NCBI GenBank assembly: GCA_965203355.1
Contig: OZ241889.1
Location: 3,136,001 to 3,200,000 of the forward strand
DNA: 64,000 bases
Source of the DNA: Candidatus Latescibacterota bacterium
GTDB taxonomy: Bacteria > Latescibacterota > UBA2968 > UBA8231
Direction: 5' to 3'
Within the stretch, counting starts at the first letter, position 1; each line of letters opens with the position of its first letter. The position numbers were made by a program, and so were the translations under genes. This document shows, in pieces, positions 2,887-34,223 of the stretch. The notes under the pieces were generated by a model, which had not been told where the DNA came from, made no database searches, and saw only the letters and a list, made by a program, of their open reading frames with translations.

Positions 2887-3525
2887 CTAACGCCATTCCT
2901 CTGCGGTTGCGATCCGATTGACCGCTGTTGCCAGCCATTGGAATGCGGCTAATCTGTACAGAACACTAAAATCGTCAATCATTTCAGCCACGCGATGGAC
3001 ACTCGACCGCCAATTGAAGTGCTTTAGGCGACGCCCTTGTAGGCCGCTCGCCTGACTCAGAAGTTCGCGGATGCGTTTTTTGGGATCGGCTAACTCTTCA
3101 AGCCTTGTCACATCTGGCATGTCTAGGGGCTGAGTACCATTGGGATTGCCCGCAGCCCTTCTCAACGCAGCCTCGTTGATGAGCAACCACGCTTCCTGCA
3201 TCCGCACGGGCACCACGCAGACAACGCGTACCGAACCTTCCACGGAACTTTCCGCTAAAGCTCTACAAATTTCTGCCTCGCGCTCCTCGATTGAGTCACT
3301 CTCTGCGTCCCTATGCACAAAGAGCAGGTCGCAAGGATACAGTTCAACGCCTCTGTCAATGCGTTCAGAAAGTTTCCTAGGAGAGGGAGATAGACGGCGC
3401 AGGTCGGCAAACTCCGCTTGGATGGGAATCGCACCGCAGTACTGACGTAGCAGCCAAGTAAGAATCGGTAGAAGGGCACGGTCAGACGATCCGTCCGCCA
3501 CCAGCGTGTAGCGCAGTTCCTGCAT
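2887..3525 (-). CDS. TOPRIM-like (DUF4276-like) protein partnered with an ABC ATPase
   Basis: Motifs LVADGSSD, LFVHRDAE and VPVRMQEAWLL; starts 16 bp after the ATPase stop. Confidence 0.65.
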   Translation of the reverse strand: MQELRYTLVADGSSDRALLPILTWLLRQYCGAIPIQAEFADLRRLSPSPRKLSERIDRGVELYPCDLLFVHRDAESDSIEEREAEICRALAESSVEGSVRVVCVVPVRMQEAWLLINEAALRRAAGNPNGTQPLDMPDVTRLEELADPKKRIRELLSQASGLQGRRLKHFNWRSSVHRVAEMIDDFSVLYRLAAFQWLATAVNRIATAEEWR

Positions 3526-3541
3526 CCGGCACCAGATTTGC

Positions 3542-4990
3542 CTAGTAAAAAGACAGAAGAAGTTGCTGCATATCCTCCCTATCGACTACCCGCTTCTGTG
3601 TTGATGTCTCTATGTAATTCTTAGGCAGCACCGGGTTCAGATAAGGAAGCAGATCGCCGCGAGCGGCATCTTCGCTCACTTTGGCTCGCCAAGTATCGGA
3701 CAGGCCGAGAAAGTGAGCTTTTTTGCAGAGGCGTCCTTCCTCATCTATGGCCTCTCTTGCCTTTACAAATACGACGCTATCGTCCGGGACTTGTTGGAAT
3801 ACTGAAGGCGAGTGAGTATTGACGATCACTTGGCGTAGTGGATTGTCCTCTCCAACAGGCTCTTGGGTATCCACCGCAATATCCCTGAGCAGCTGCAGTA
3901 TAGCCGGGATCCGCGCCGGATGAATACCGTTTTCCGGTTCTTCCAAACAAATCACTCCCTGCATCTGCGGGTCGCTCTCCAAGACAGCCAAAGCGAGAAA
4001 GCGCAGGGTACCATCCGACAGGGCACGTGCCGGATGTAAGGTCCCCTCTTCGTTTTTTACATACAACGTCAATAGCTCCCGCTTCTCATCCCGCTCTATG
4101 TGAATATCATTCACACCCTCGATGAGTTCGGCCAAGCGGTTGGCGATCTGGCTATATACTTTTTGAGGGACCGAATCTACATGCCGCCCCAAGCGATACA
4201 ACGTAGCCGCCAGATAGCGACCATCCGCCTTTAAGTGAGTAGGAGCACCAAATTCATCGGGGCTTCTAAGTGCCGAAGGCTCCAGTTGCAACATTTGCCA
4301 AGATTCCATCTCTCGGCGAGCGACCAATGCCGTAGGGCTTTCCGCCGCATTGGCTGTGGAAAGCACGGTGCGCGGTAAATTAGCGGCGGATCGGGGCAAA
4401 GGACGCCCACTGCTGCCGCCATCCTGATGTAGTTTTATGACTCTGTTTTCTCCCTCGCCTGTAGTTGAAATGAAATAGGGGGCGTGGCGCTTGCCGTACA
4501 CGGCGGATTTGCGCCAGTCCTTTGCACTGTTGGGAAATAAGAGATGTCGCGGAGCATCACCGTGGGTGATATGGACTAATTCTTCTTTGACGATAGCGAG
4601 ATTACCTCGCACCAAGCTGTCGGCCGTCTCTCGGTAAGCAAGCTCTAGGGAATAGCGCAAAAATGTAATACTGGCCTTTGCCTCCTGCCCTAAGTCGTCA
4701 ATGGCCCACCGCGGCACGATCATCTCTGCCTCAAAGGTCATATGCTCAGCATAGTGGTCTCCCACGCGGTGAAAAAGGTCGCGCACATGTGCGGTGCGGC
4801 AGTCTTGATTGCGCACGGCGGCAGCGGCCTCCATGAGCGTGTGATTGGCCAATGCACTCAGAAACCGAATCGCGTCAAACAGGTTTGACTTACCCACCCC
4901 ATTCGGCCCAACTACACAGGTAAACGGACCGAGGTACAAATCCACATCCACCAGATTTTTGAAGTTAGCGACTTTCAGTCGAGTCAACAT
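3542..4990 (-). CDS. AAA_21/RecF-like ABC ATPase
   Basis: N-terminal NFKN, Walker A GPNGVGKSN, signature LSDGT, Walker B/D-loop LEEPENGIHP and H-loop THS. Confidence 0.88.
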   Translation of the reverse strand: MLTRLKVANFKNLVDVDLYLGPFTCVVGPNGVGKSNLFDAIRFLSALANHTLMEAAAAVRNQDCRTAHVRDLFHRVGDHYAEHMTFEAEMIVPRWAIDDLGQEAKASITFLRYSLELAYRETADSLVRGNLAIVKEELVHITHGDAPRHLLFPNSAKDWRKSAVYGKRHAPYFISTTGEGENRVIKLHQDGGSSGRPLPRSAANLPRTVLSTANAAESPTALVARREMESWQMLQLEPSALRSPDEFGAPTHLKADGRYLAATLYRLGRHVDSVPQKVYSQIANRLAELIEGVNDIHIERDEKRELLTLYVKNEEGTLHPARALSDGTLRFLALAVLESDPQMQGVICLEEPENGIHPARIPAILQLLRDIAVDTQEPVGEDNPLRQVIVNTHSPSVFQQVPDDSVVFVKAREAIDEEGRLCKKAHFLGLSDTWRAKVSEDAARGDLLPYLNPVLPKNYIETSTQKRVVDREDMQQLLLSFY

Positions 4991-5166: not shown

Positions 5167-5901
5167 ATGGTCGAAACCAACGACATCCAACGCCCTCCCA
5201 AAGACCTCGTCGAGGCCCTCGCCTCCATTTCCAGCGCGACCGCGGCCGGCGAACTGGCTCGCTTGGGCATCCGCGATCCCCACATCCAAGGCCCGGTCGC
5301 CCGCATCCCGGGCAAACACGTCGTCGGCCCGGCCCTGACCTTGCAGTTCATGCCCAAGCGCGAAGACCAATACTCGGTTGATGAATACGCCGACCCAGAA
5401 AAGCAACTCCACCGCCACGCCCTGTACCACACCCAACCCGGCGACATCATCGTCGTCGATGCGCGCGGCGACATGCACAGCGGCGTCTTCGGCGAGATGA
5501 TGCTCACTTTCTTCATGGGGCGCGGCGGCATTGGCGCGGTCATCGACGGCTGCATCCGCGACTTTCCCAAGGTGGTCGAAGACCTCGACATCGGGCTTTG
5601 GCTGCGCGGCACCACCCCCAACTTCCACACCCAGACCAATATCTTCCCCTTCGCAGTCAACCAGCCCATCGCCTGCGGCAACACCCTCGTCATGCCCGGC
5701 GACATCATCGTCGCCGACGACGACGGCGCCACCGTCGTCCCAGCCCAACTCGCCCCCGAACTGACCGAAAAGGCCCAAGCCCACGCCGAGTGGGAGGACT
5801 TCAGCCGCATGAAGCTGGCCGCGGGCGGGCACTTGCGCCAATACTACCCTCTCAGCGAAGAAGCCCGCGCCGAGTACGAAACCTGGAAAAAGGAACAATG
5901 A
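5167..5901 (+). CDS. RraA/HMG aldolase family protein
   Basis: Motifs VVGPALT, GDIIVVDARG, GVFGEM, DGCIRD and PGDIIVADDDG; AGGAG RBS. Confidence 0.88.
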   Translation: MVETNDIQRPPKDLVEALASISSATAAGELARLGIRDPHIQGPVARIPGKHVVGPALTLQFMPKREDQYSVDEYADPEKQLHRHALYHTQPGDIIVVDARGDMHSGVFGEMMLTFFMGRGGIGAVIDGCIRDFPKVVEDLDIGLWLRGTTPNFHTQTNIFPFAVNQPIACGNTLVMPGDIIVADDDGATVVPAQLAPELTEKAQAHAEWEDFSRMKLAAGGHLRQYYPLSEEARAEYETWKKEQ

Positions 5902-7661
5902 ACCGCCGCCCCAACATCGTCTTCGTCCTCACCGACGACCAAGGCTACGGCGACTTGGGCTGTCACGGCAACAGCGCGATCCGCACACCGTGCCTCGACC
6001 GCTTCCACCAAGATGCCGTGCGCTTCACCGACTATCACGTCGGCTCCACCTGTGCCCCCACCCGCGCCGGCCTGCTCACCGGCCACTACTGCAACAGCGC
6101 TGGCGTTTGGCACACCATTGGCGGCCGCTCGCTGTTGCGTGCCAACGAGTGGACCCTTGCCGACGCGCTCACTGGCGCGGGCTATCGCACCGGGCACTTC
6201 GGCAAGTGGCATCTCGGCGACAGCCCGCCCTACCGCCCTCACGAGCGCGGCTTTGCCGAATCCGTGTACCACGCGGGCGGCGGCATTGGCAACACCGGCG
6301 ACCCTTGGGGCAACGACTACTTTGACGACACCTATTTCAAAAACGGCGTTCCCACCCCGTACGAGGGGTACTGCACGGACGTGTTCTTCCGCGAGGGGCG
6401 GCGCTTTATCGCGCAAAACGCCGACCGACCCTTCTTTTGTTACATCGCCACCAACGCGCCGCACGGGCCGCTCAACGTCGCGCCACACTACGTCGCGCCC
6501 TATCGCGACGCCACGCCACACGAAGACCGCGCCCGCTTCTACGGCATGATCGCCAACATCGACGAAAACTTCGGCCAGTTGCAGGCCACGCTCGACGAGT
6601 TGGGCATTGCCGACAACACCATCCTCATCTTTATGACCGACAACGGCACGGCCACCGGGGTCGAGCTAGACGACGATCAATTCCCCCGCGAAGGGCCGGG
6701 CAGTTACAACGCCGGTATGCGCGGCAAAAAAGGCTCCCAGTACGAAGGCGGTCACCGCGTGCCCTTCCTCATCCGCTACCCCAACGGACGCATCACTGGT
6801 GGCCGCGACATTGACGTGCTGACCAGCTACGTGGATTTCATGCCGACCCTGCTCGACTTGTGCGGAGTAAAAGTCCCGGCTGGCCGCACCTTCCACGGCC
6901 AGAGTCTAAGGCCGCTACTGCTCGGCGCAGGCAGTTCGGCTTGGACCGAGCGCGTCACCGTCTGCGACACCCAGCGCGTAGCTCGCCCGGTCAAATGGCG
7001 CAAGAGCGCGGTGATGAAGGACAAGTGGCGGCTCATCGACGGTCGCGCACTCTACGATCTCGGCGCGGACCCCGGCCAGCGTCAGGACCTGGCCGCTGAG
7101 CATCCCAAAATCGTCGCCGAGTTGCGCACGGCATACGATGAGTGGTGGGCACTCGTGTCCGAGCAATTCGACCGCGACGCACCAATCGCCCTCGGCGGGA
7201 GCGACCAACCCGTTAAGCTCACCACCCACGACCTCCGCAATGAGGCGTGTAGTGCCGTCTGGAATCAGCGCCAAGTCCGCGCCGGGCAGATCGCGAGTGG
7301 TTTTTGGGCGGTTGATGTCAAGGAGGCGGGACGCTACCAAATTGAACTGCGGCGCTGGCCCGAGGAAACCGGCTACGCGCTTGCTGCGGGGATTGAAGGC
7401 GACGATAGTGGCTGGTACCGCGCCGGTATTCAGCCGAAAAACGCGCCAGCCTACGAAGGCGGGCTGGCCCTCGCCCTCGGCTGGGCACAGCTAACCATCG
7501 GCGGTCAAAATCGCCAGCGAGAAGTCGATCCTGCCGCGACCAATACTTGCTTTGCGATTGACCTCGCCGCTGGCCCGGACCGACTCTACGCCTCGTTTCA
7601 CGATCGCACGGAGCGGACTATTGCTCCTTACTACGTGTACGTGCAGAAGTTTTCGGGATAG
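5898..7661 (+). CDS. arylsulfatase (formylglycine-dependent, family S1)
   Basis: The real start MNRRPNIVFVLTDDQG overlaps the previous stop (ATGA). Motifs CAPTRAGLLTG, GKWHLG, TDNG and GKKGSQYEGGHRVP. Confidence 0.92.
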   Translation: MNRRPNIVFVLTDDQGYGDLGCHGNSAIRTPCLDRFHQDAVRFTDYHVGSTCAPTRAGLLTGHYCNSAGVWHTIGGRSLLRANEWTLADALTGAGYRTGHFGKWHLGDSPPYRPHERGFAESVYHAGGGIGNTGDPWGNDYFDDTYFKNGVPTPYEGYCTDVFFREGRRFIAQNADRPFFCYIATNAPHGPLNVAPHYVAPYRDATPHEDRARFYGMIANIDENFGQLQATLDELGIADNTILIFMTDNGTATGVELDDDQFPREGPGSYNAGMRGKKGSQYEGGHRVPFLIRYPNGRITGGRDIDVLTSYVDFMPTLLDLCGVKVPAGRTFHGQSLRPLLLGAGSSAWTERVTVCDTQRVARPVKWRKSAVMKDKWRLIDGRALYDLGADPGQRQDLAAEHPKIVAELRTAYDEWWALVSEQFDRDAPIALGGSDQPVKLTTHDLRNEACSAVWNQRQVRAGQIASGFWAVDVKEAGRYQIELRRWPEETGYALAAGIEGDDSGWYRAGIQPKNAPAYEGGLALALGWAQLTIGGQNRQREVDPAATNTCFAIDLAAGPDRLYASFHDRTERTIAPYYVYVQKFSG

Positions 7662-7736
7662 GGCGCGTTTGCTCGGGTGTGGAGTTACGCTAGCGACGCT
7701 TGTGCGGCCGAAATTCTGCGGCAAACTGCGGTGCGA

Positions 7737-8357
7737 TTATCCTGCGCCCAGTTCCTCGTCGAATAGCCGTTTGGCTTCGGCTTTGGCCCATTGCTCGCAT
7801 GCACGTGCTGCTTGGGTGGTCGGCTCGCGAACGTCCTGGGGAGCCTGAAGGTTGAGCTTGTCGAGCGCACCTTCCACCGCTTTTTGGAGCTGTTGTTGCT
7901 TCCATCGCCATTCGTCGGAATTGAGATACAGAACGGGCCATGCCAGTACTTCCTTGCGGCCGTCAAGCAGCTTCTGCAAAACATCCCGCGATGCCTCACG
8001 ACGGTTGTATTCGAGGTCAAGCTCGTAGCAGAGCATCTCATCGCGGTAGGTTTCCACCCGCTCTTGGACGAAGGAACATTGCTCTTGGGATGGAGGGATG
8101 GGGCCTGGGCTTGGCGTACTTGGCTCGCCAACGCTCTGACGCCGCTTGCGCTTGTTACTTACAATGACGCCCGCGGTGAATCCAATGGCTATACCGGTGG
8201 CTATACCGGCTAGAAACCATGTTATTTCATTATTTTCTTCTACCGAATCTTTCGGTACAACAGCGGCTCCTGCAATGGCTCCTGAAGCGGCTCCTGCAAT
8301 GGCTCCTGCAATGACCGCCGTACCAGCGGCTAAAGACACAATACTCTTCGTACTCAT
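7737..8357 (-). CDS. hypothetical membrane protein (two Gly/Ala-rich hydrophobic helices plus helical C-terminus), last gene of the dynamin operon
   Basis: The start abuts the upstream stop (TAA-ATG). AGAIAGAASGAIAGAA and WFLAGIATGIAIGFTAGVIV segments are followed by a basic KRKRR stretch. Confidence 0.7.
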   Translation of the reverse strand: MSTKSIVSLAAGTAVIAGAIAGAASGAIAGAAVVPKDSVEENNEITWFLAGIATGIAIGFTAGVIVSNKRKRRQSVGEPSTPSPGPIPPSQEQCSFVQERVETYRDEMLCYELDLEYNRREASRDVLQKLLDGRKEVLAWPVLYLNSDEWRWKQQQLQKAVEGALDKLNLQAPQDVREPTTQAARACEQWAKAEAKRLFDEELGAG

Positions 8358-10367
8358 TTAGGCACTCCTCGCTTCGCTCGCTAGGTCATGGTCATATTCA
8401 GCTTTAAGTTCTTCTACTTGCAGTTTGCGCCGATCTAATTCCACAAGCTGATCGTCAATCTTTTGCTGCTCAACCTCATCTAACGAAGCTCCTTTTTCCA
8501 ACTCTTCTAAAAAATTCCGCTTCGCTCTGAAAATGTGCTGCAAACTACCTTCCATTGTATTAAGGGCCTCTAGTCCGAGCCGTTGCAACTCGGTGGCAAT
8601 TTTTTCAAATAATTCGTCAAAAGTTTCTCTCAGAAGCGATTCAAGTTCGTCTTCCAACGCCTTAGCAGCCTTCTTTTTGCCTAGTCCTGTACCACAGATC
8701 CTCTCCCACCAAGAAACTGCAGACCTCACAGCGTTCTCCAGAGTTTCTCGGTTAAGATCGTTTGTCAGCTCCGTTTCTGCATCCTTGCAAATTCTATAAG
8801 GCGGGAGGAGTAGTAAGTGATAGTTTGGTATATATGGTATATATATATCAATGGTCGATCCACTCGTTAGGAATATATCTGATAAATCACTCTCCGACTG
8901 ATTGAGGATGCGTTCGGTTTCTGCCACGATCTTCCTGATAGCTTCCACGAGAATAGAACGACTATCATACAGATGGCTCCCAATACTCATCGCTACTCCT
9001 GCCATATTGTCGATGCTAGGACAACTTTTAAGGTCATCTTCGATCTTTCTCATGATTTCACGAAGCGTTTCATTAATGCTCCTTTGCAGGGGATCTCTTG
9101 CTTCATCAAGAGCCTTCCTGAACTTCTTCATCGTGTTATCAACAACTAAATTTATCGAAACAAGGTTTTCTCTTGTCCGAGCGAAGTCTTTGCTGCGATT
9201 TTCCTGCGATAGGTTAATAGCATTGCGATTAGCCGTCAATATCGCCTTGTCTTGCGCGATGCTTTTATCGGCCTTTTCGAAGACGCTGTCCAAACGTGTT
9301 TGATGCGCCTCAATAATACCATCTCCTTTAGTCGCGATGATTTGTCGTTCAATGACATTGCGAAGTCGCTCAAGCCCATGTCTCTCTGGCTCTAGATAGC
9401 CCTTGCTTGATATTTCCCTCAAATTCCATGTCAAAACCTCAGGCAGGGGGCGACCTGCTTCTTGCATGGCGGAAACAAGCGCACCGAGACCGCTGACGAG
9501 TACGATCTGCTCGTCGTTTCCGAACAGTGCCTTTCCCCTCAAGTCTTCGCTATCTCGAGTTTTCCGAATGTGTCTCCGAATGGCTGCTTCGTCGGGCTGC
9601 GTATCGCACTTGTTCACCGCGATGATGCGCCGGCGAGGATCGATGTGTGTCAAGTACTTGTCAATAAACTTCACGTCATCCTCAGTCAGGCCTGCTTGCC
9701 CGGCAAAAGTGACGTACACCACAGCATCAGCGCGTTCGATCCACTCGCGGGTAATTTTGTCGCGCACCGGGTTCGGATCATTGGTTCCAGGGGTATCGGC
9801 TACTGTCACTTGATGCAGCCACGGACGATCGGCCCACAATTGCACCTGGTTGACATACGCGCTGTATATGCCACCGCTGTTACATACCGCCACAAACTGG
9901 CCGAGCTTATCAAGCCCATCCTCGGAAATGACGCACGGAGGGTTAGTAAGCAGATCGGATTCCCTAAGTCTTTCCGCACGAGCAGTCTCCCGTGCCTCTT
10001 CCAGGTCCTGCGCGGACCGTTCATCTAGCTTGCTAGCTTCCACCACCTCGCGAAATTCGTCAGGCGTGTACAACGTAGCCTCAACTCGCTCCGTTTCATC
10101 TCCTTCCATGAGTGCGATTTTGGCCGTCATAGTCGTAACGTGACTCGGCAACACCTCCTCGGAGAAAAGTAGGGCGTTAAGCAGGGTTGACTTCCCGTTG
10201 TTCATCTGGCCACAGACCGCGAGGATGAAGCGCTCTTCTTGTAGATTGGATTTTGCCTCCTGAAGTGCCTCCACGTCTGCCTTTAGCAATTCATGGTTTT
10301 CAACGACGCGGTCGTACCACTCGCAGAGGGTAGCTTTGTGCTTTTGGTGAATAGCTAGACCGTTCAT
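8358..10367 (-). CDS. bacterial dynamin-like GTPase (DLP 3)
   Basis: G1 GQMNNGKST, G2 TMTA, G3 DTPG, G4 NKCD and a long helical C-terminus. Confidence 0.88.
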   Translation of the reverse strand: MNGLAIHQKHKATLCEWYDRVVENHELLKADVEALQEAKSNLQEERFILAVCGQMNNGKSTLLNALLFSEEVLPSHVTTMTAKIALMEGDETERVEATLYTPDEFREVVEASKLDERSAQDLEEARETARAERLRESDLLTNPPCVISEDGLDKLGQFVAVCNSGGIYSAYVNQVQLWADRPWLHQVTVADTPGTNDPNPVRDKITREWIERADAVVYVTFAGQAGLTEDDVKFIDKYLTHIDPRRRIIAVNKCDTQPDEAAIRRHIRKTRDSEDLRGKALFGNDEQIVLVSGLGALVSAMQEAGRPLPEVLTWNLREISSKGYLEPERHGLERLRNVIERQIIATKGDGIIEAHQTRLDSVFEKADKSIAQDKAILTANRNAINLSQENRSKDFARTRENLVSINLVVDNTMKKFRKALDEARDPLQRSINETLREIMRKIEDDLKSCPSIDNMAGVAMSIGSHLYDSRSILVEAIRKIVAETERILNQSESDLSDIFLTSGSTIDIYIPYIPNYHLLLLPPYRICKDAETELTNDLNRETLENAVRSAVSWWERICGTGLGKKKAAKALEDELESLLRETFDELFEKIATELQRLGLEALNTMEGSLQHIFRAKRNFLEELEKGASLDEVEQQKIDDQLVELDRRKLQVEELKAEYDHDLASEARSA

Positions 10368-12253
10368 AGTGAATGCTCCTTCATATTATTGATCCGTTTT
10401 TGGAGTTTCGTGAGTTGTTCGGCTTTACTCTCAGCCTTTGATTGATTTCGTTCTGTGGTACTAATGATGGCTTTCTTTAGATCATCTATAATGATCTGAT
10501 CGATTATAATGATCTGATCGATATCTGGATCTGGTACCGAATTAAAACTTGAGACTATATACTCAAACCATCCGTCTCTAGTAGATTTATCCTCCTTGAA
10601 TTCGCCCTGCCAAATCCCTCTTTCAGATTTCCATCTCACATCATGTCGAAAATCTTTTCTCATTTCTTTGGCTACTTCGGAAATATTATTATCGAGAATC
10701 TCTTTCAGTTCTTCAACAACTTTCTCGGGTTTGGATGTAGATTCTATATTGATACCAAAGTACTTTTCTAGGTGAGAAAGTAACACTTCATATATAGAAT
10801 TAATACGAAACCAATTATCATCGTCCATTATATTAATATTATTTAAAGAAACACTAAATCTAACTGTATAATAGCTAGTGTGCGAAAAAATCCCCTTTTC
10901 AATTCGCTCGCCCTTAACAACTATATCCTGGCCAACTCTTTCACAAATCTCTCGGATACAATAGAGCGTATCGCTCTTCGCTTTCTCGATCCTTTTAAGA
11001 GCAGTTTTACGTTTGGTTTCATGATGACTATCACTGGAAGAATCGTTTAGTGCATGTTTCAGTCCCATATCCACCTCAGAAAGCGTCTTTTGCAAGTTTT
11101 CTCGCAGTTGCTGGGTATTCCGCTGAAATTGCCGTTGAAGCATAGAGTGTCGTTCGGCTAGAATTTTGTTCACGATCTCGATAAGTTCCTCGCGAGATAC
11201 CAGCTCAAAACCTGATGAGAGAGGCGCATCGTACACATTGCCGGTGATATCGAGCTGATAACTCTTTGTAGTTAGTTTAGCCGAGATATTTTCTCGAAAT
11301 GAATCGCGCCTCTTGTACGCTTCTCGCATGCGATCCATCATTCTGTCCAGCGCGTCGAGCGGTTCCGCGTCTTCGGATTCATTCAACTGCAACGCAGAAA
11401 CAAGCACGACATCGCGGAATAGATCGCCGTGCTTCTCCTTGCAGAAACACTTCAACTCCCTACGTTGCGGTGGTGGCAGATCCTCAGCCTTGTTGAGCAA
11501 GAGGAATGTGGGTGGGTTGGTCGAATCTTGTGACAGCTTATTCAACTCGTCCAACAGCGTACCTGATGGATTGCCCTTGTGAGCATCCGCGATTACAAAC
11601 AACACATCTGATTCTCTGACAGCTTGTTTGGTTACTTCAGTATCAATCTCATTTGGCGGCGGAGCATTAAACCCGGGTGTATCGACAAGTCGAATGTGAT
11701 CGAGAACCGGGGAGTTTATCGAGATGCGGAAGGTATGCGACTCGTTGTCGCCCTCTTTCTGATGGCTGGCCAATGCGCGGTACTTCGTTTTACCCAAAGA
11801 AACCCATTTTCTATCCGCTGATTCTTGCTCAATGCGTTCTTGGTCGCCATGGACAAAGTACGTTACCGATGCGGTCGTCGGCTCATCGCCTACCGGGCAC
11901 ATATCCATTCTCAATAGTGCATTGATGAATGTCGATTTACCTGCACTGAAGTCACCGACCACCGATACGGTCAAAAGACCGAAACCATCCTGAAGATTGC
12001 GCTCCTCGGCAAGGTGTTCAATCAAGCTCTTTTCCAAGGAAACTAACTTATCCGCTAGTTCGCCGGTCAAAAGATCGAGTTCGGCATCGGCAAATTGGTC
12101 GCGAACAGATCGCAAGTCGAGGAGACATTTAATCGTAGCGTTGTGACCGATTGGCCGGGTGTCTTCCTGTGGAGCCGATGAGGGTACATCTGTTTTTCGC
12201 GACGACATAGCCTTCTTCTTCGGAGTAGCCTTCTTCTTACGCTTACCGCTCAT
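10364..12253 (-). CDS. bacterial dynamin-like GTPase (DLP 2)
   Basis: G1 GDFSAGKST, G2 PTTA, G3 DTPG, G4 NKAE; ATGA overlaps with both neighbours. Confidence 0.88.
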   Translation of the reverse strand: MSGKRKKKATPKKKAMSSRKTDVPSSAPQEDTRPIGHNATIKCLLDLRSVRDQFADAELDLLTGELADKLVSLEKSLIEHLAEERNLQDGFGLLTVSVVGDFSAGKSTFINALLRMDMCPVGDEPTTASVTYFVHGDQERIEQESADRKWVSLGKTKYRALASHQKEGDNESHTFRISINSPVLDHIRLVDTPGFNAPPPNEIDTEVTKQAVRESDVLFVIADAHKGNPSGTLLDELNKLSQDSTNPPTFLLLNKAEDLPPPQRRELKCFCKEKHGDLFRDVVLVSALQLNESEDAEPLDALDRMMDRMREAYKRRDSFRENISAKLTTKSYQLDITGNVYDAPLSSGFELVSREELIEIVNKILAERHSMLQRQFQRNTQQLRENLQKTLSEVDMGLKHALNDSSSDSHHETKRKTALKRIEKAKSDTLYCIREICERVGQDIVVKGERIEKGIFSHTSYYTVRFSVSLNNINIMDDDNWFRINSIYEVLLSHLEKYFGINIESTSKPEKVVEELKEILDNNISEVAKEMRKDFRHDVRWKSERGIWQGEFKEDKSTRDGWFEYIVSSFNSVPDPDIDQIIIIDQIIIDDLKKAIISTTERNQSKAESKAEQLTKLQKRINNMKEHSL

Positions 12254-14028
12254 GGCCGACCAACCTTTTTAAGCCGCTCAATATCGTCTTGAATACGCGA
12301 CACCTTGGCGTTGCGCTCCTTGATATCGTTTCGTCGATCAGACTCAATCTGAGAAAGCACACTCTGCACTTCTTCAGACTCGCGCTTTAAGGGTTGAAAT
12401 ATTTCAGACTCGAAGTATGCCTCAATATCTCGGGCCGCTTGCTCCGAAACCTCCATGCAAATACGGTCCATTGGCTCGTCGATGCGCTCCTTTTTCAACC
12501 GCTCTCCAACCCAGACAGCGACAATGTTGATTATATTGACATCGTGCATAGTGGCAAGCATACTTTTTCCGACTTTCTTCAGCCCTTCGGCGGCTGCGCG
12601 TCTCGCCATTTTGGTGGATGCTTTGGCGGCCGCATGGCGCAATCCCGCACCGACCGTCGACTCTGCGGCAGTAGCAGCTACACCAGCACCAGGTAAGATC
12701 GCGGCAACCAGTGCGGCAGTAGTAATGGTTGCCGCCACGCTCATAATCTTGTTGGTGTCTTTCAACAAGCGTTTGATCTCCGCGTCAATCTCGCCAACAT
12801 GGTTATCCCGTTCTTGTCCCAGTCTCTTAAAATGCTCGCTAACCTTTGTTGCGAGTGCCGAGATGAATGCGCTACTGACCTGTTCTATGGTGATCTTGGC
12901 TGGTTGTTGATGATGGTCTAGTTGATCTTCATAGGTGAACTGTTCTATGGCGAGATCGTCTGACGCAGCGGCAAACCGACCCTTATAATCGGTGCATATT
13001 GCACTCACATCCCGGCGGAGATCATCGCGCGACTTATCGAAACGTTGCCGTTGCTGGTGTAGCTCTTGATCCAATCTTTCGCGTCGATCATTTGCCTCTT
13101 TCTGGCGCGACAAAAAATCTCCTTCCGACTCCAGTAAGCCACCCCGCATTTGCTCAAGCGTCGCGATTGCACCTGGCACCAAACGAACGCTGGCGCGATC
13201 TTGCCGTTCGGCCATAAGGGACGCCTTCCGCGCCTCGAACACCTCGTGGATAGCGGTGCGTAAAGTACTGACATCGCGCACTGCCGCCTCCGGACCAGCA
13301 CTTACGACCACAATGCGCCCCTCGGCTTCTGATTTGGCGCAGCCAATGGTCTGCGCCAGCGTGTCGGCAGTCTTCTCGGCGACCACCGCCCGCTCAGAAT
13401 CTGGCAATTGGTCGGCAAATGTGAGCGCGATGAGAAAGCGATGTTGTAGATGGCGAACGCCGGGAGAAGTAAGAAAATCGGTGACGGTACTCGTTAGCCC
13501 TCCCTTGCGGATATCCACGCAGATCATGGCTGCATCTACGAAGGGTAGCTTTCCCAAAGTGACCTCCGTGTGCTCTTGGAAAGCAGGCGTCGATAGTCCC
13601 GGCGTGTCGAGGAATACGAATCCTGCTGGAAACCCGGGCCGGGAGGGGAGGCGTACAAGTGGGCGGCCCGGCGTATGCCCGCGGGCGAGATCATCAAAAT
13701 CAGGACGACTGATTGCCGTCTGCTCATCCTCGTCGTCCACGCGAAAATACTCCGGCTCTTGGAGAGAAGGCGTCGAGATGACCTGTCCGGCCCGCGCTGT
13801 GCAAGGCTCGAGTTGCACTGGCATGAGGTCCTCCACGCCTACCAACTCGTTGATTAGCGTACTCTTGCCGCTACTGAAGTCCCCCAGAAAACCTATCTGC
13901 ACCGCATCATCACTCGTAAGGCTCTGGATATCGTCGGACAATCGGTCCAACTCCCACTGCGAGGCTACCTCGCGCAACACTTCCAACACTGTTGAATCAC
14001 CTTGTTCGGTCGTCACATTCCGCTCCAT
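12250..14028 (-). CDS. bacterial dynamin-like GTPase (DLP 1) with hydrophobic paddle
   Basis: G1 GDFSSGKST, G2 PCTA, G3 DTPG, atypical G4 TFAD, hydrophobic ITTAALVAAILPGAGVAA segment and AGGAGG RBS. Confidence 0.88.
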   Translation of the reverse strand: MERNVTTEQGDSTVLEVLREVASQWELDRLSDDIQSLTSDDAVQIGFLGDFSSGKSTLINELVGVEDLMPVQLEPCTARAGQVISTPSLQEPEYFRVDDEDEQTAISRPDFDDLARGHTPGRPLVRLPSRPGFPAGFVFLDTPGLSTPAFQEHTEVTLGKLPFVDAAMICVDIRKGGLTSTVTDFLTSPGVRHLQHRFLIALTFADQLPDSERAVVAEKTADTLAQTIGCAKSEAEGRIVVVSAGPEAAVRDVSTLRTAIHEVFEARKASLMAERQDRASVRLVPGAIATLEQMRGGLLESEGDFLSRQKEANDRRERLDQELHQQRQRFDKSRDDLRRDVSAICTDYKGRFAAASDDLAIEQFTYEDQLDHHQQPAKITIEQVSSAFISALATKVSEHFKRLGQERDNHVGEIDAEIKRLLKDTNKIMSVAATITTAALVAAILPGAGVAATAAESTVGAGLRHAAAKASTKMARRAAAEGLKKVGKSMLATMHDVNIINIVAVWVGERLKKERIDEPMDRICMEVSEQAARDIEAYFESEIFQPLKRESEEVQSVLSQIESDRRNDIKERNAKVSRIQDDIERLKKVGRP

Positions 14029-14040
14029 AGTACGCGCCTC

Positions 14041-14355
14041 CTAAAAAGATAGACTTAGGGATTTGATGGTTTTGGCCGGTGCCCCGAGATCGGTGGGACT
14101 TGCCAACGCGGCCGGGCAGAGCAATACCTCTTCCCGCTTCTGTTGAGGAAGGGGATCGAGGGGAATAGGCTGATAAATGAATCTAGAGAATGCCCGAGAA
14201 AATCGGGGGGGGGGGGGTAACTCATTGTTTTTTAACGACTTACGGCAAAAAATAAAGCTCGGTATTGGCGTTATTTTAAGCGTTGAATAAGGTACAGCCA
14301 TCGCATCAAGTACCGCTCTGCAATGGTATTCTTTTACTATCGACGCTGTATCCAT
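14041..14355 (-). CDS. putative poly-C-containing leader ORF (copy A, in frame)
   Basis: 104-aa ORF whose TAG overlaps the TAGGAGG RBS of DLP1; homologous to 33398-33879. Confidence 0.5.
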   Translation of the reverse strand: MDTASIVKEYHCRAVLDAMAVPYSTLKITPIPSFIFCRKSLKNNELPPPPRFSRAFSRFIYQPIPLDPLPQQKREEVLLCPAALASPTDLGAPAKTIKSLSLSF

Positions 14356-14388
14356 GTCCTGCTTAATCCGCCTAAGAGTGCCCGCAAG
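14090..14388. repeat. leader cassette copy A (diverged direct repeat of 33630-33910), with G13 tract at 14205-14217
   Basis: Shared blocks: ctcttcccgcttc, G-run plus taa..cattgttttttaacga, ggcgttat, ccatgtcctg, ttaatccg and ccgcaag. Confidence 0.85.
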
Positions 14389-14415
14389 CTAAGCTATCGG
14401 TTTAAGTTCAGCAAG

Positions 14416-14443
14416 AAACTATTACGCTATTTTTCTGTGTCAA
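14416..14443 (-). promoter_or_regulatory. possible sigma70 promoter for the leader/dynamin operon
   Basis: TTGACA-N16-TAGTTT on the minus strand. Confidence 0.35.
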
Positions 14444-14522
14444 TACAAAACTGGATTAGCTTCGTGATAACCTACAAAAACGCCGTCATACGCCTATCTT
14501 GTCAAGAGCAGCACACTGCCCC

Positions 14523-16907
14523 CTAGCGCACCAGCAGCAACTTGCGCGTCTGCCGCTCGCGGCCAGCCCGTAGCTGGTACAAATACAATCCCGAAGCAAG
14601 CGGACGTCCCTGCCCGTCGCGGCCATCCCAATGCAGCACGTGCCGGCCAGCCGGCCGCTGGCCACCAACCAGCGTCGCTACGTGCTGCCCGGTGAGCGTA
14701 TAGACTTTCAGTTCGACCTCTTGGGCGCGGTCGAGCGCATAGCGGATCGCGGTCTGGCCGTTGAACGGATTGGGGAAATTCTGCTCCAAACCGAAGGGCT
14801 GCGGCCTCGCGTCTTCACGCGCCTCGCGGACGGCGGTGGGCGCGGCAAACTCCGTGCGCACCAGCCGCAGATCGTCAATGTAAAAGTGCCCTTCGACATT
14901 GGCGGCAAAGCGCACGGTCTCTATCGGCTGGTCGAGATTGCCGAACGCGCTTAAGGGAATTTCTAGCACCTGCCATTCCTTGCGCCCCAAATCCAACTCA
15001 CCCGCTCCTTCGCCCAAAAGCACGACCCGCCGGAAGCCACCGCTCGCCAACACCACCTCGACCACATCGCCTTCGGCCGGCACCACATCGCCGGGATGGA
15101 TCGCCAGCCGCAGCGCCCGATAGCCCACCGTCTCGATAGGCGTTGGCGGTGCCAGGTCTAACTGCCAAGGCAACAGCCGCGTCAGGGGGGCGGCGGTCAG
15201 CACGCCGGCCATCGTGCCGGTAAAAACCGGGCCGCTTCCGTCAAAGTCAAAGCGATCCAAACCCAAACCGGCCTTGGCGGTCCAGCCCGCAGCCAACTCG
15301 TCATCCGCGATCGTCAAATCCTCAGCCGGCAGCACTACCAACGTGTGCATGAGCGCGATTTCAAACGGACCTTCCCCGGTATTTTGCACCACCTTCACCG
15401 CGATCGGCTTGCGGCCGTTGGCCTGTGCGCCCGCCAAGGTAGCCGCCAGCCGATAGCGTCCGTCGCCCAAGTCCGCAAGCGGCGTTTCGGCCTCGCCGCC
15501 CAAGGCACTCAGATCCGCGGTTACCACCGGCGGCGGCGCTCCCCGGTCAAAGCGCGTCAGCGCAATCGCCGCCGACAAGTCGAGGGCCTGACCAGCCAAG
15601 ACCGTATCCGGTGGCTCAACCTCCCACTGCCCCATCAACGGCCCCATCCGCACCCGAAAAACCGCTTGGGTCGCGTGATCGCTGGAAACGTAGAGTGCCC
15701 CTTGGGCATCGCTTGCCAAGCCCACCGGCTTGCCCCAAACCCGGTTGCTACTCGGATTGGGACGAAAGCCGGTGAGAAAATCGGCTACTTGGGCCTTTTG
15801 CCCGTCTGGATCGCTAAAAACCACCATCACCTTATAGCCTAAATCGTTGCCCCGCACACCAGCGCGCAGCGCGACAAAGGCTTGGTTGTGGTATTCGGCG
15901 GGAAATTGATCGCCGGTATAAAAGTGGATCGCCATCGGCGCCGTGTGAGCCGCGACCGTGGCAACCGGCCTCGCCATCCGCTCAACGTCAAGCGTATCCT
16001 CGCGCGTAAAAGGCGCGATCGAGCGAAAGTACTCGCCAATCTCAAAGTCAACCCACGCCTGATAGCCGTGCGCCAGCGGCCAGCCGTAGAATCCACCCTC
16101 GCGCACGATGACAATGGTCTCAGGAGGTACGTCGCGCCCATTGGGAAAGCGGTCGCGGTCGTGGCCGTTGTTGGTCGCCCACAATGCGCCGGTAAGCGGA
16201 TGCAGCGCCAAACCTATGGCATTGCGCAAGCCGCGGGCAAAAATGCGCCGTCCCATGCCGTCGAGGTTAAAGGCCAGTATAGTGGCGCGCTCGGGATCGC
16301 GCTCGCGGCACAAATCGCAGGAGGATCCTTGATGCACGTATATGCGCTCGTTGGCCGCGTCGAAGACGATGGTGTGCGTAACGTGCTCTGCGCCGCCTAA
16401 ACCGGGGATCCACGTCGCCAGATCCGGGATAAAGACCGCGCGCTCTTCGTAAAAGCCGTCGCCATCGCCGTCCCTGAAGCGCACGACCTCATCGGTATCG
16501 GCCACGTACATGGCCCCCTGATAAAAGGCCACGCTATTGGGCCACAGCAGATCGTCGGCCACCGTCCGCACTTCGTCGGCCCGCCCATCCCGGTCGCGGT
16601 CGGGCAACGCCACAACGCGCCCGGTGCGATTGGGATCGGCCCTCCACTCGCTATTGCCTCGGGTGCCCATGACCGCCACGTGCAACACGCTGTCTGGACT
16701 CCACGCCATCAGCCGCGCCTTGCCGAGATCCTCGGCGAACAATTCGACGACAAAACCGGGCGGGACGTTTAAGGTCCGACTCTCCAGCCCTGCTACCGGG
16801 ACCGGCTGGAGGTGGAGGTCGATTTTTGGCGTCAGATAGACTTCGCCGGGTGCTTGGGCATAGACGCTGCTGACGAAGAGGCCAAGGGCAACAAGCAAAC
16901 GCATCAT
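14523..16907 (-). CDS. PQQ-dependent glucose/sorbosone dehydrogenase family protein with C-terminal FlgD-Ig/T9SS type A-like domain
   Basis: Signal peptide; FARGLRNAIG, NNGHD, GGFYGWP, AHTAP, GKPVG and LYVSSD motifs; C-terminal QNFPNPFN...WDGRD...SGLYLY...KLLLVR. Confidence 0.85.
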   Translation of the reverse strand: MMRLLVALGLFVSSVYAQAPGEVYLTPKIDLHLQPVPVAGLESRTLNVPPGFVVELFAEDLGKARLMAWSPDSVLHVAVMGTRGNSEWRADPNRTGRVVALPDRDRDGRADEVRTVADDLLWPNSVAFYQGAMYVADTDEVVRFRDGDGDGFYEERAVFIPDLATWIPGLGGAEHVTHTIVFDAANERIYVHQGSSCDLCRERDPERATILAFNLDGMGRRIFARGLRNAIGLALHPLTGALWATNNGHDRDRFPNGRDVPPETIVIVREGGFYGWPLAHGYQAWVDFEIGEYFRSIAPFTREDTLDVERMARPVATVAAHTAPMAIHFYTGDQFPAEYHNQAFVALRAGVRGNDLGYKVMVVFSDPDGQKAQVADFLTGFRPNPSSNRVWGKPVGLASDAQGALYVSSDHATQAVFRVRMGPLMGQWEVEPPDTVLAGQALDLSAAIALTRFDRGAPPPVVTADLSALGGEAETPLADLGDGRYRLAATLAGAQANGRKPIAVKVVQNTGEGPFEIALMHTLVVLPAEDLTIADDELAAGWTAKAGLGLDRFDFDGSGPVFTGTMAGVLTAAPLTRLLPWQLDLAPPTPIETVGYRALRLAIHPGDVVPAEGDVVEVVLASGGFRRVVLLGEGAGELDLGRKEWQVLEIPLSAFGNLDQPIETVRFAANVEGHFYIDDLRLVRTEFAAPTAVREAREDARPQPFGLEQNFPNPFNGQTAIRYALDRAQEVELKVYTLTGQHVATLVGGQRPAGRHVLHWDGRDGQGRPLASGLYLYQLRAGRERQTRKLLLVR

Positions 16908-17061
16908 GGGCAACCTTTCTGCAAGTGGCGTAAAAACCTGTCTCTAAAAACGCACTCGCCCCCCATAAGAGCAAAACGCGCCCGCCGTGCGTTCCCAACA
17001 GATAGCGCGTTCATCCACCGCGTCTTATTTTTCCGCGCACACCTCACCCGGAGAATTCATC

Positions 17062-27739: not shown

Positions 27740-30700
27740 CTACTTGAGCAGCAGCATCTTCTTGATGTCGAGGAAGTCGCCGCCCGCCTGCAAGCGGTAG
27801 AAGTACATCCCGGACGACACGCTCTGGCCACTATCGTTGGTCGCGTCCCACTCCACCGCATAGCGACCCGCCGCCTGATGCTCGGCGACCAGCGTCCGAA
27901 TCGGCTGACCCAGTACATTATACACGGTCAGCCCCACGTCCGCCGCCTGCGGCAACGCATACTGAATCGTTGTCTGCGGATTGAACGGGTTGGGATAGTT
28001 AGCTGCCAATGAGAACACGGCCGGGCGCGTCTGTAACGACACCGGCGCGGGCAATGCCAGTCGGTTGAAGCCCAACGCCCGGTCATACGTCTGGCTGTCG
28101 GTGATTTCGAGAGTCGTGTGTGCAATCTCGGTCGTCGGACGGAAGACCAAGCGCAATATCAACTCGCCGTCCGAAACGACGTCACCGTGGGCGGCTACCG
28201 TCAACACGCCAGCCTGATCGGCCAGCACCTGCGGCGTAGCAAACGCGCTCCCGCCCAGCGGCTGATCGGTCCGCGCCTCGACGAAGGTTAGCTGGTCGGC
28301 GTCATAGGCTATCTGCAAGCCGTAGCCTTTGACCGCCACGAAGTCGGCTAACCGCACATTAACGATGAACTCTTCTCCCACGCTCGGCAGTTCTGTCGGC
28401 GCGTCCAGATACAGCCGCGCGTCCCCGTTCAGCCCGGTCCGCAGCGGCACCGGCTTGCCCGCCGCAGCCACGCTGCGACCGAAATGGTCGGCCAACACGA
28501 AGAAGTCGTCGAAGTCAATCGTCCCATTCGGGGCCAAGTCAAACGCTGGATCAAAACCCGCGTCGCCTGCCGTCAAGCCGAAGCGGTCGGCCAACACGAA
28601 GAAGTCGTCGAACCCGATACGATGGTCGGCGCCGAACAGCCCCAACAGAGCCTGCCCTTGGCTATCGGCCACCCGGTTGCGCACGGCCAACGCGGTATGC
28701 TCAACCGAATCGGTCTCGTTGTCTAAGTCGAAAGGCCGCACCTGATAGGTGTAATGCACCCCATGCTGCGCCGTCTCATCGACGAAGGACGCTACCCCAG
28801 ACGACACCTCGGCGACCACGGAAAACGCTTCTTCCCCGACCGCCCGGCGATAGATGCGGTAGCCATGCACACCGACGACCGGCTCGACTGGCGCCGGGCC
28901 TAGTGCTCCGGCCACGACCCCTTGCAGCACCTGATCCGACGGCGACAGCGTCCACGTCAGCGCGATGCGACCGCCCTGATCGTCCGGTGCATCCAACACC
29001 TGCAACGCCGACACGGCCAACGGCGCGATGTCGTCAGTCGCCCGCACAGCCTCGGCCGTCCAAGTAATCGACGAACTCAGCACACTACTGACGACATTCA
29101 GCTTCGGTGCCACGCCGCGAGCGTAAGCCAATGCGTCCGGCAGCAACGATGCCAACACCGGCCCCTCACCGCCCTGCGCGGCGGTGCGGCTGGCTTGCAG
29201 CGTCTTCGCCATCTGCGCGTAAGGCTGCGTCAAATCACCCGCCTCGACGAACACGGCTTTGGCCGCATGATGCGTGGTGCGCCCCCCGCGCTCGGCGGCA
29301 ATGCCCCAGCGCGTCGAGACGTTGTCCAGCGTCGCCACGATAGCGCGGCCCATCGCCACGCCAGGCACGGCATCCACGTGCGCCCACGGCACCATCTCAT
29401 TTTCCAGCACCGGCAAGGCGCGGAAAATGCGATAGCCGTCCAGTGACTTATGATCAGCCGATAGTTCCCAAGACAGCATCACGAAACCGCCTTGGTCGCC
29501 TTGGCCGTCCGCACCTTTGTAGTCCTCGGCGACCAGGTTGGTCGGCGCCGACAGCGGCGGCTCCACCACCGCCATGCTCAACGGCAGGGACTGACTCGCG
29601 CCGCTGGCATCTACGACCGTGTAGGCCGCAACCGTCTCGCCCATCGTCGTCGGCGTCCCCGAAATCGTCCGGGTGGCCGGGTCAAACGACAGACCCGCTG
29701 GCAAACCCGACACGCTATACGTCAGCGGCGGGGTGCCCCCGGAGACCGCCGGCAACGTCAGGTTTGCTGGCACACCGACGGTGAATTGAATCATGTTGTC
29801 GGTGTGCGAATCGGCCGGATTGGCCTTGCCAGCACCGCTGTTGAGACCGAACAACGAACTCAGGTCGCCAAAGTCCAGCATCGCGTTGACTGTAATCGTG
29901 AACGTCAGCGAGACGCTTTCGGTGCCAGCCATCGCCGTGTAGGTGACCTCAACGGCCCCATCGGTCGCCGCGTCCGGTGTGCCGGAAATCGTCCGGGTCG
30001 CCGCGTCAAACGACAGCCCGGTCGGTAGCCCCGACACGCTATACGTGATGGCCCCCTCGCCGCCCAACGCCACCGGCAGGACCAACGGCGTAATCGCCGT
30101 GCCCGCCGTATAGGCATGTGCGGCAATCGAAGTGCCCTCGACGAAAGACAAGGGGATCATCGTCTCCCTATCGCCGTCATTATCGTCCATCATCCCGCTG
30201 TCTGTGTCGGTCAGCACCAGCGTCGCCGAACCCGCCGTCAAGCCCGGCAGCATCGCGTTGAGCACCACCGTCTCGTCGCCTTCGGCCATGCCGTCGGCCG
30301 TCGGATCGATCAGCAGGCGCGTCGAACCCATAATCGAACCGGCGGCAATGGTAATCGTCGGATTGAACAGCGCCGAGTAGTCCAAATCGCGCGCGGCACT
30401 CGAAGCCTCGTCAATCGAGACGGAGACCGTCGCGGCCTCGGCCAACGGCTTGCCGTCCAGCGCGGCCATGACCATCACTTCCGTCAATTCCGCCGACTCG
30501 CTGAGCGCGCTCGGCATCACCGACAGCACCAAAGACGTGCTCGGCGTCTCGTCGTCGGAAATCCGCAGGTCCACCTGCCCCCAGCCGCCCGAAGCCGCCG
30601 CCCGAACCCCCAAGTGCTTATGACCATCCGCCGAAGCGTTGTCGATGGGCGACAGGAAAAGCGTCGTCCAACCCATCGTCTCGCCAGCCGCAATGGTGAT

Positions 30701-33397: not shown

Positions 33398-33879
33398 TCA
33401 ACCTCCTGAAGGAGAGCATCGCCCAAGGGCGAAAGGGAAAGGGTAGAAGGAAATGGACTTAGCCGTAGAAATAAGCCGTTGTGTTCCTGCGTTTTTGCTA
33501 CCGTTGAGCAAGACGAATCCCGCGCGGCGAGCGCTCGGGCTACGACGTCGCCGGCCGATAACCGCGAGGCTATCGAGGATGGGTTTCGTTTGTGATGTGG
33601 ATGGGTGGTCAGTGGCCAGTGGCCAGTGGTCGGTGGGGCTTACCGACGCGGCCGGGCATAGCAAGGCCTCTTCCCGCTTCCGTAGAGGAAGGGAAGCGAG
33701 GCGAATAGGTTGGCGAGTGAAGCTAGGGCTTAATGCCCAAGAAATTCGGGGAGGGGGGGGGGGGGTAAATCATTGTTTTTTAACGATTTATGGCGATTAA
33801 GTCTCGGCGTTATCGCAAGTGTAGAACAAGGCACCGCTCCCGGCGATAGTGTTCTTTGTGCTATTGACGTTGTGCCCAT
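33398..33879 (-). other. putative poly-C leader ORF (copy B, frameshifted at the G13 tract 33753-33765)
   Basis: ATG 33879 reads MGTTSIA...KSLKNNDLPPPPLPEFLGH* and stops at 33730. One extra C would join it to the open frame ending at 33398, just before the surface-protein ATG. Confidence 0.55.
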
Positions 33880-33910
33880 GTCCTGTTAATCCGATTAAGA
33901 AGGCCGCAAG
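33630..33910. repeat. leader cassette copy B (diverged direct repeat of 14090-14388)
   Basis: Same block order as copy A. Confidence 0.85.
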
Positions 33911-34146: not shown

Positions 34147-34223
34147 TGGTGGGCGATCCCAGACTCGAACTGGGGACATCCTGCTTGTAAGGCAGGCGCT
34201 CTGACCAACTGAGCTAACCGCCC
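34147..34223 (-). tRNA. tRNA-Val (TAC)
   Basis: GGGCGGTTAGCTCAGTTGGTCAGAGCG CCTGC-CTTACAA-GCAGG ATGTCCCCAGTTCGAGTCTGGGATCGCCCACCA; 77 nt with encoded CCA. Confidence 0.97.

Follow-up and report, generated by a model that had tools for sequence, protein, structure and literature searches.

A conserved, mobile four-gene module of three dynamin-like GTPases and a membrane-anchored protein in Candidatus Latescibacterota and distant bacteria

Bacterial dynamin-like proteins (DLPs) are described as occurring mostly in side-by-side pairs, and the presence of up to eight of them in some cyanobacteria is taken to suggest larger heterotypic complexes (PMC6104087). The two proteins of the Campylobacter jejuni (Cj) pair are reported to assemble into a 2:2 tetramer that tethers liposomes, in which a 119-amino-acid (aa) N-terminal assembly domain of Cj-DLP1 is needed to bind DLP2 and clamps DLP2 helix 1 (PMC6104087). 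Eleos has been presented as a system of two genes, LeoA and LeoBC (10.1101/2022.12.12.520048), and a two-gene dynamin operon is reported to protect Bacillus subtilis against jumbo phages, with both P-loops needed, to lie beside defence systems in 60% of cases and to have its first gene split in some genomes (10.1101/2022.05.11.491447). For enterotoxigenic Escherichia coli (ETEC), a GTPase is described as split between the P-loop and G3 into LeoC (206 aa), an N-terminal half that has the P-loop and is anchored through its C-terminus, and LeoB, the remainder (PMC4159319). PMC8935386 mentions a Helicobacter pylori island that encodes "three DLP" proteins. Here we describe a four-gene cassette encoding three full-length dynamin-like proteins and a 206-aa membrane protein, located on the minus strand at 7737..14028 of a 64,000-nucleotide (nt) stretch of DNA from a Candidatus Latescibacterota bacterium (contig OZ241889.1; hereafter, the window). 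Literature searches brought up no bacterial operon that combines three full DLPs with a partner of this kind; preprint supplementary tables, which lay outside these searches, might list variants.

The cassette comprises the following genes:

12250..14028, minus strand: DLP1, a full-length bacterial dynamin-like GTPase of 592 aa
10364..12253, minus strand: DLP2, a dynamin-like GTPase of 629 aa
8358..10367, minus strand: DLP3, a dynamin-like GTPase of 669 aa
7737..8357, minus strand: the gene for the small membrane-anchored protein of 206 aa

From DLP1 to the small gene the junctions are ATGA, ATGA and TAA-ATG, and an AGGAGG ribosome-binding site lies 8 nt ahead of the DLP1 ATG. The guanine-cytosine (GC) content of the cassette is 49.9%, as against 64.0% in the sulfatase gene and 63.4% in the DUF7133/GSDH-like gene that flank it. 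An earlier note on this DNA had described four coupled genes of lower GC, and the open reading frames (ORFs), the three junctions and the GC contrast (~50% vs ~64%) all agree with that description. Consensus promoter and terminator matches around the cassette were not above those in shuffled sequence.

To investigate the conservation of this arrangement, one genome per species was scanned with the small-protein alignment as query, and the DLP genes were placed by tblastn. The scan returned seven loci in metagenome-assembled genomes of Latescibacterota, Poribacteria and Spirochaetia. The order DLP1-DLP2-DLP3-small gene is present in all five scanned loci with enough upstream DNA, and the two that are cut by contig ends have DLP3 and the small gene. 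When DLP1 was used to search the phylum, a further complete cassette (L044) and a contig broken off within DLP3 (L045) came to light. With the window included, the total is therefore ten loci in nine genomes of three phyla, seven of them complete and three cut by contig ends, without an exception to the gene order; outside the window, the order holds in 6/6 loci with enough DNA and is compatible in the 3/3 that are cut. The small gene is found wherever the DNA extends to its position (9/9 loci, window included), with its start coupled to the stop of DLP3. The earlier note had proposed looking for the same four-gene synteny and had allowed that the 206-aa gene might never accompany DLP triples; the small gene in fact follows the triple in 6/6 further loci. 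Each copy is recovered as a single, full-length and stop-free tblastn alignment, which speaks for intact genes under selection.

The distribution of the cassette is patchy. A DLP1 ortholog was detected in 4 of 167 Latescibacterota genomes, in 1 of 401 sampled Spirochaetota genomes (the query genome itself) and in none of 176 genomes of the phylum that holds the Poribacteria locus, where the contig of the sole carrier is cut. One genome carries two copies at different sites (L003 and L004). A metagenome scan with the DLP1 alignment gave four weak loci and no ortholog, and relatives of DLP3 and of the small protein were not found on viral contigs. The four-gene set is thus a conserved, mobile dynamin module whose genes move together, and its transfer has taken place between distant bacteria of unrelated lineages.

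Membership of the dynamin superfamily was judged by the Pfam Dynamin_N cut-off of 27 bits, and all three proteins score above it (DLP1 37.5, DLP2 78.1 and DLP3 71.0 bits). Each has its own G1 (GxxxxGKS/T) and its own G3 (DTPG) motif, both of which are invariant among the orthologs with the single exception of one DLP2 copy that reads DMPG instead of DTPG. The G4 motif differs among the three, being TFAD in DLP1, NKAE in DLP2 and NKCD in DLP3, of which only the last is canonical; each form is invariant in the respective orthologs (6/6, 5/5 and 6/6). Strongly hydrophobic 19-mers on the Kyte-Doolittle scale are present in DLP1 only, at residue 428 (mean 1.98) and residue 490 (mean 1.36), and neither DLP2 nor DLP3 has a 19-mer with a mean above 1.2. 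Hence the earlier note was right to assign each DLP its own motif set, to call TFAD atypical and to place the clearest hydrophobic paddle in DLP1, but it overlooked the deviation of NKAE in DLP2. In profile-profile comparison the three DLPs align with one another across the GTPase domain only (165-201 columns, ~24% identity), and because the mutual alignment is confined to that domain we regard them as old paralogues, none of which is a recent duplicate. Among defence profiles, only PADLOC LeoA and LeoBC cover all three DLPs, with 40-70 bits, scores that are given here without reference to the PADLOC calling thresholds.

DLP1 has the only hydrophobic hairpin of the set, at about residues 428-508. 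Its sequence has no match at E 0.01 among solved chains, and its AlphaFold2 model (predicted local distance difference test, pLDDT, 84.1; predicted template modelling score, pTM, 0.72) has a complete bacterial dynamin architecture, with the hydrophobic segments at residues 428 and 490 on either side of the low-confidence tip. A Foldseek search with this model gave IniA (6j72, E 1e-12) and the bacterial dynamin-like protein BDLP (2j69, E 3.9e-12) as its best matches; IniA, BDLP, the Cj DLP pair and mitofusins are matched over 630-690 alignment columns, and LeoA (4aur, E 1.8e-7) appears at rank 37. By sequence profile, DLP1 matches PADLOC LeoA with 69.9 bits (E 5.7e-20, profile positions 103-557 of 559). 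The wider DLP1 family comprises 109 clusters at E<=1e-30, and the ten that were looked up are unnamed metagenome proteins. In a 53-sequence alignment of this family, conservation of both the T and the D of G4 is 90% or higher, which makes T-x-x-D a family trait and not a sign of decay. When 18 sampled DLP1 relatives were compared with LeoA, they scored at most 60.6 bits, and 5 of the 18 had no match at E 1e-8.

DLP2 has a Lys-rich N-terminal tail followed by a conserved N-terminal helix, and its best solved relative by sequence is C. jejuni DLP2 (5owv_C, E 1.8e-9), with EHD ATPases next. Its NKAE motif occupies residues 254-257, in place of NKxD. The invariance of this motif and the presence of EHD-type ATPases among the nearest solved relatives raise the possibility that DLP2 may use a nucleotide other than GTP. 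DLP3 has canonical G1-G4 motifs and is closest among solved proteins to C. jejuni DLP1 (5owv_A, E 7.5e-12, residues 34-257 of the query on residues 150-363 of the chain). Its GTPase domain begins at about residue 45, and because residue 34 of DLP3 aligns to residue 150 of the chain, DLP3 is without the ~119-aa N-terminal assembly domain. Against the PADLOC profiles, DLP2 scores 58.6 bits with LeoA and 49.1 bits with LeoBC (the latter at E ~1e-13), and DLP3 scores 47.4 bits with LeoBC (E ~1e-13) and 40.6 bits with LeoA; these alignments extend to residues 498-547 of proteins that are 629-669 aa long.

The fourth gene encodes, in order, an N-terminal transmembrane segment, a basic (Arg-rich) stretch, a Pro/Ser linker and a conserved helical domain of ~120 aa. 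An alignment of 18 family members has 39 invariant columns, 38 of which fall within residues 97-200, and the AlphaFold2 model has block means of 83-98 pLDDT over residues 91-206. The Arg/Lys cluster that follows the helix suggests, as far as charge distribution in the sequence can indicate, that the conserved domain faces the cytoplasm. A single N-terminal transmembrane helix is present in 16 of the 18 aligned members; the window copy and one other member have a second helix through an insertion, which in the window is ~45 aa long. The window insertion includes four tandem 12-nt repeats (8262..8320) that encode the Gly/Ala-rich first helix. Hence the description of this gene product in the earlier note as a glycine-zipper protein with two Gly/Ala helices is accurate for the window copy and does not extend to the family. 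The 12-nt repeat array reads as a lineage-specific expansion inside an ancestral transmembrane helix.

No Pfam, PADLOC or NCBIfam family matches the small protein at threshold, and it has no GTPase motif. A search with the single sequence gave 31 relatives and a search with a profile gave 70 clusters, all of them unnamed or annotated as "hypothetical". Structure searches gave a best E of 0.22 with Foldseek against PDB and of 0.071 against the BFVD viral structures, a best Z of 5.5 with VIA-align against 48,161 chains, which is inside the noise range for helical models, and no usable match in the ESM Atlas; a profile search of PDB gave a best E of 0.049. The domain is thus without an assignable fold, and these searches do not prove that the fold is new. 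Longer proteins that carry the domain as a fusion were not seen among 587 candidates scored, which is weak evidence.

Like Eleos/LeoABC, the cassette consists of adjacent co-directional dynamin-like GTPases with intact P-loops and has one component that supplies a membrane anchor. PADLOC LeoA and LeoBC are the best matches of its DLPs in the defence library, and it is an accessory set of patchy distribution that has candidate defence genes close by in some loci. The two differ in that the cassette has three complete DLPs where Eleos has two (or one whole and one split), and in that the anchor of the cassette lies on a separate, small non-GTPase protein with its own conserved domain, whereas in ETEC it is the terminal transmembrane helix of LeoC. 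In addition, LeoA 4aur comes far behind IniA and BDLP among the structural matches of the DLP1 model (E 1.8e-7 vs 1e-12). A one-to-one mapping of the genes onto LeoA, LeoB and LeoC, which the earlier note had named as speaking against its reading, was not seen, given three complete DLPs and a 206-aa gene with neither a GTPase motif nor a Leo match. Neither of the two outcomes that would have told against the note was thus observed, and its proposal of a three-DLP complex with a dedicated membrane partner, perhaps in defence, is supported as a putative reading, the defence part by genomic context. That LeoC and the small protein are both 206 aa long is a coincidence. The C. jejuni pair (PDB 5owv, 5oxf) supplies the best solved relatives of DLP3 and DLP2 by sequence (Cj-DLP1 and Cj-DLP2, respectively), is likewise encoded by neighbouring genes with a stop/start overlap, and shares with the cassette the conserved N-terminal helix of DLP2. 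The cassette differs from it in its reversed gene order, in similarity that is confined to the GTPase domains, in the absence from DLP3 of the Cj-DLP1 assembly domain, and in its extra third DLP and membrane protein. IniA (of the iniBAC operon) and Nostoc BDLP1 are the best whole-length structural matches of the DLP1 model, with which they share a GTPase domain, neck and trunk helical bundles and a membrane-inserting tip; they differ in that a T-x-A-D G4 runs across the DLP1 family and in their operon partners.

The genomic site of the cassette was examined by comparison with close relatives. The relevant features of the window, in addition to the four genes, are:

7662..14522, no strand: variable segment that holds the entire cassette, bounded by the sulfatase and DUF7133/GSDH-like genes
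5598..7661, plus strand: sulfatase gene (flank)
14523..16913, minus strand: DUF7133/GSDH-like gene (flank)
14029..14522, minus strand: operon leader of 494 nt, presumed promoter region, non-coding, with AGGAGG at its end

The DUF7133 gene has orthologs of 87-91% identity in 16 Latescibacterota genomes, and downstream DNA was compared from six of these, all with long contigs. In five of the six the site is empty, with the DUF7133 and sulfatase genes ~0.5-0.9 kb apart, where the window carries 6.86 kb between them. Homology with the relatives ends at 14519-14521 and at 7668-7703, at the stop codons of both flanking genes. The sixth relative (L041 5766..8878, minus strand, genome G149) has a Type IIG restriction-methyltransferase gene at the site of the cassette, where two ORFs jointly cover the corresponding PADLOC profile (595.7 and 207.9 bits). 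These ORFs (735 and 338 aa) overlap, and the gene may be frameshifted or mis-assembled.

On the other side of the sulfatase gene, the window has a HEC-01A/B candidate pair at 2887..4990 (minus strand), made up of an AAA_21/AAA_15 ATPase of 482 aa (344 bits) and a partner of 212 aa (84 bits). This pair has 53.8% GC, lies two genes or 2.7 kb from the cassette, and is a neighbour of it in the window and in L002. Among the six close relatives, one has both A and B, only A was detected in another, and four have neither. Since both spots are variable and hold defence genes elsewhere, the cassette occupies one of two adjacent variable sites. Other loci differ in their neighbours. For example, in the Spirochaetia locus L007 (10459..14916) the gene directly downstream encodes a pentapeptide-repeat/FRG protein that matches PDC-S15 (206 bits), a HEC-03B ATPase (499 bits) is encoded nearby, and a PspA/IM30 gene and a YbjN/CesT-like gene are ~2 kb from the cassette, so that genes of defence and of membrane stress are mixed there. 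A WYL/WCX regulator lies downstream of the cassette in L006, and a SocA/Panacea-domain protein adjoins it in L005. It should be noted that these neighbours are raw counts from about seven independent contexts.

The leader has no Rfam match. A 104-aa ORF at 14041..14355 was treated as non-coding; it has no Pfam, PADLOC or NCBIfam match and overlaps a dispersed repeat. This repeat, ~170 nt long, is on the minus strand in two copies, ~14120..14330 (in the leader) and 33670..33880, has no Rfam match, and contains a conserved box rich in A with a 13-C tract after it. The first copy is ~180 nt upstream of DLP1 and the second ~360 nt upstream of an ORF of 1884 codons (27740..33394, minus strand), beside which lies the window's single tRNA gene (tRNA-Val, 34147..34223). 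A similar box and C tract lie ahead of DLP1 in L004, and they are not seen in L002 or L003. In contigs from public runs, the ~50-nt core of the repeat is on many other contigs at a higher summed depth, with tract lengths that vary by 1-2 bases. The repeat may be a regulatory or phase-variable element.

A Dynamin_N search of related genomes that themselves carry the cassette (G001, G002 and G004) revealed further operons with three DLPs (L012, L014, L013, L015, L016; L008). One type, represented by L012 and L014, encodes proteins of 738, 784 and 802 aa, and in another (L013, L015 and L016) each DLP of a Latescibacterota genome has its ortholog at the corresponding position in a Spirochaetia genome. 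These other triples are only 22-30% identical to the window DLPs in the GTPase domain. One of them follows a WYL regulator, and the L013 triple has a third DLP with ~12 ankyrin-repeat matches.

We give about an even chance to the reading that the module is an anti-phage or anti-invader defence system, in which case it would represent a variant of the Eleos/Leo dynamin systems with a new architecture, and consider this the most likely of its possible roles. It is favoured because the variable site is shared with a restriction enzyme, candidate defence genes are among the neighbours, the distribution is patchy, and the DLPs are akin to those of Eleos. Several observations weigh against it. The Leo profile scores are low, and against NCBIfam LeoA/HP0731, which has a cut-off of 325, DLP1 scores 19.1 bits and DLP2 18.4 bits, and DLP3 has no match; because the LeoA/LeoBC matches are weak and this cut-off is so far off, we place the module beside Eleos and not in it. 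HEC and PDC are only candidate systems in PADLOC-DB, and no recognised defence gene lies beside the cassette in L001, L003 or L044, the last of which adjoins purL. The PspA/IM30 neighbour in L007 fits membrane-stress repair as well as defence. At the cassette ends, no terminal direct or inverted repeats, integrase or tRNA were found. Finally, the L013 triple lies among housekeeping genes, and hence a DLP triple alone is no signature of defence.

For complex formation, topology, membrane activity and defence we infer the following scheme. Judging from the behaviour of solved DLP pairs and from the coupling of the genes, the products would assemble into a hetero-oligomeric membrane machine, in which the mobile four-gene module would supply three DLPs and one dedicated membrane-anchored subunit. 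DLP1 would sit in the cytoplasmic membrane via its hydrophobic hairpin. DLP2 and DLP3, which have no hydrophobic paddle, would pair heterotypically in the manner of C. jejuni DLP2 and DLP1, and the small protein would offer them a cytoplasmic helical domain at the membrane and serve these soluble proteins as a receptor, an assembly factor or a regulator. Binding and hydrolysis of GTP by the hetero-oligomer would then tether, seal or remodel the membrane when infection perturbs it. Such an action would be akin to that of B. subtilis DynA, or to that of Eleos, in which both DLP P-loops are needed.

A less probable but still serious alternative is that the module is a device for membrane maintenance or remodelling, which repairs or reshapes the membrane under envelope stress or releases vesicles, with the small protein as its membrane receptor. 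Roles of this kind have been proposed for mycobacterial IniA/IniC and for ETEC LeoABC; deletions of Leo genes are reported to halve vesicle-associated Tat-GFP and OmpA (PMC4159319), and IniA, which with BDLP gives the best structural matches of DLP1, has been described as mediating membrane fission. The PspA/IM30 and YbjN-like genes ~2 kb away in L007, the three contexts without a defence neighbour, and the other DLP triples of related genomes, one of them among housekeeping genes and with an ankyrin-repeat DLP, point the same way. However, if the module had a core membrane function, one would not expect to find it in just 4 of 167 genomes of the phylum, with a foreign GC content, and at a site which five close relatives leave empty and another fills with a restriction enzyme. 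An accessory role under stress would still fit these observations.

More tentatively, and with rather more doubt than belief, we suggest that operons of three DLPs form an unrecognised recurrent class of membrane machines. In this proposal, the orphan domain of ~120 aa would serve as an independent assembly domain, anchored in the membrane, that replaces both the assembly domain of Cj-DLP1 and the anchor of LeoC, and that nucleates a DLP1-DLP2-DLP3 supercomplex at the inner membrane as an anti-phage effector.

It is unlikely that the cassette is an ordinary Eleos system (LeoA and LeoBC) in which one DLP has been duplicated and to which the 206-aa gene is an unrelated passenger. LeoA and LeoBC are indeed the sole PADLOC families that match the three DLPs over most of their length, at E 5.7e-20 for DLP1 and ~1e-13 for DLP2 and DLP3. 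A duplicated DLP is at odds with mutual alignments that span the GTPase domain only, the NCBIfam LeoA cut-off is missed by a factor of ~17, the sampled DLP1 relatives fare no better with LeoA than DLP1 itself, and a passenger would not be expected in 9/9 reachable loci with its start coupled to the stop of DLP3. Very improbable, finally, is a factor of symbiosis or inter-microbial conflict that acts on foreign (host or competitor) membranes, for which one could cite the transfer between unrelated lineages, the mention of cj0411 as a colonisation factor (PMC6104087), the first description of LeoA as a virulence factor (PMC4159319) and the ankyrin-repeat DLP that ends another triple in a related genome, but against which stand the translations and hydrophobic segments of the three DLPs, in which no N-terminal hydrophobic stretch was seen, the window, in which no secretion-system gene lies beside the cassette, and the charge distribution of the small protein, which would put its conserved domain in the cytoplasm.

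Research on bacterial dynamins takes pairs or fused pairs as the rule, from which a strictly conserved set of three DLPs departs. At least two further, distantly related types of triple-DLP operon are present in related genomes, and triples may thus be common in poorly studied phyla. Under the favoured reading of the module as a defence system, the occurrence at one locus of an empty site, a Type IIG restriction-modification gene and the cassette makes the hypothesis directly testable. The small subunit is dedicated to the module, structurally confident and unclassified, and the module as a whole offers a natural system for heterotypic dynamin assembly beyond pairs and for the recruitment of soluble DLPs to the membrane.

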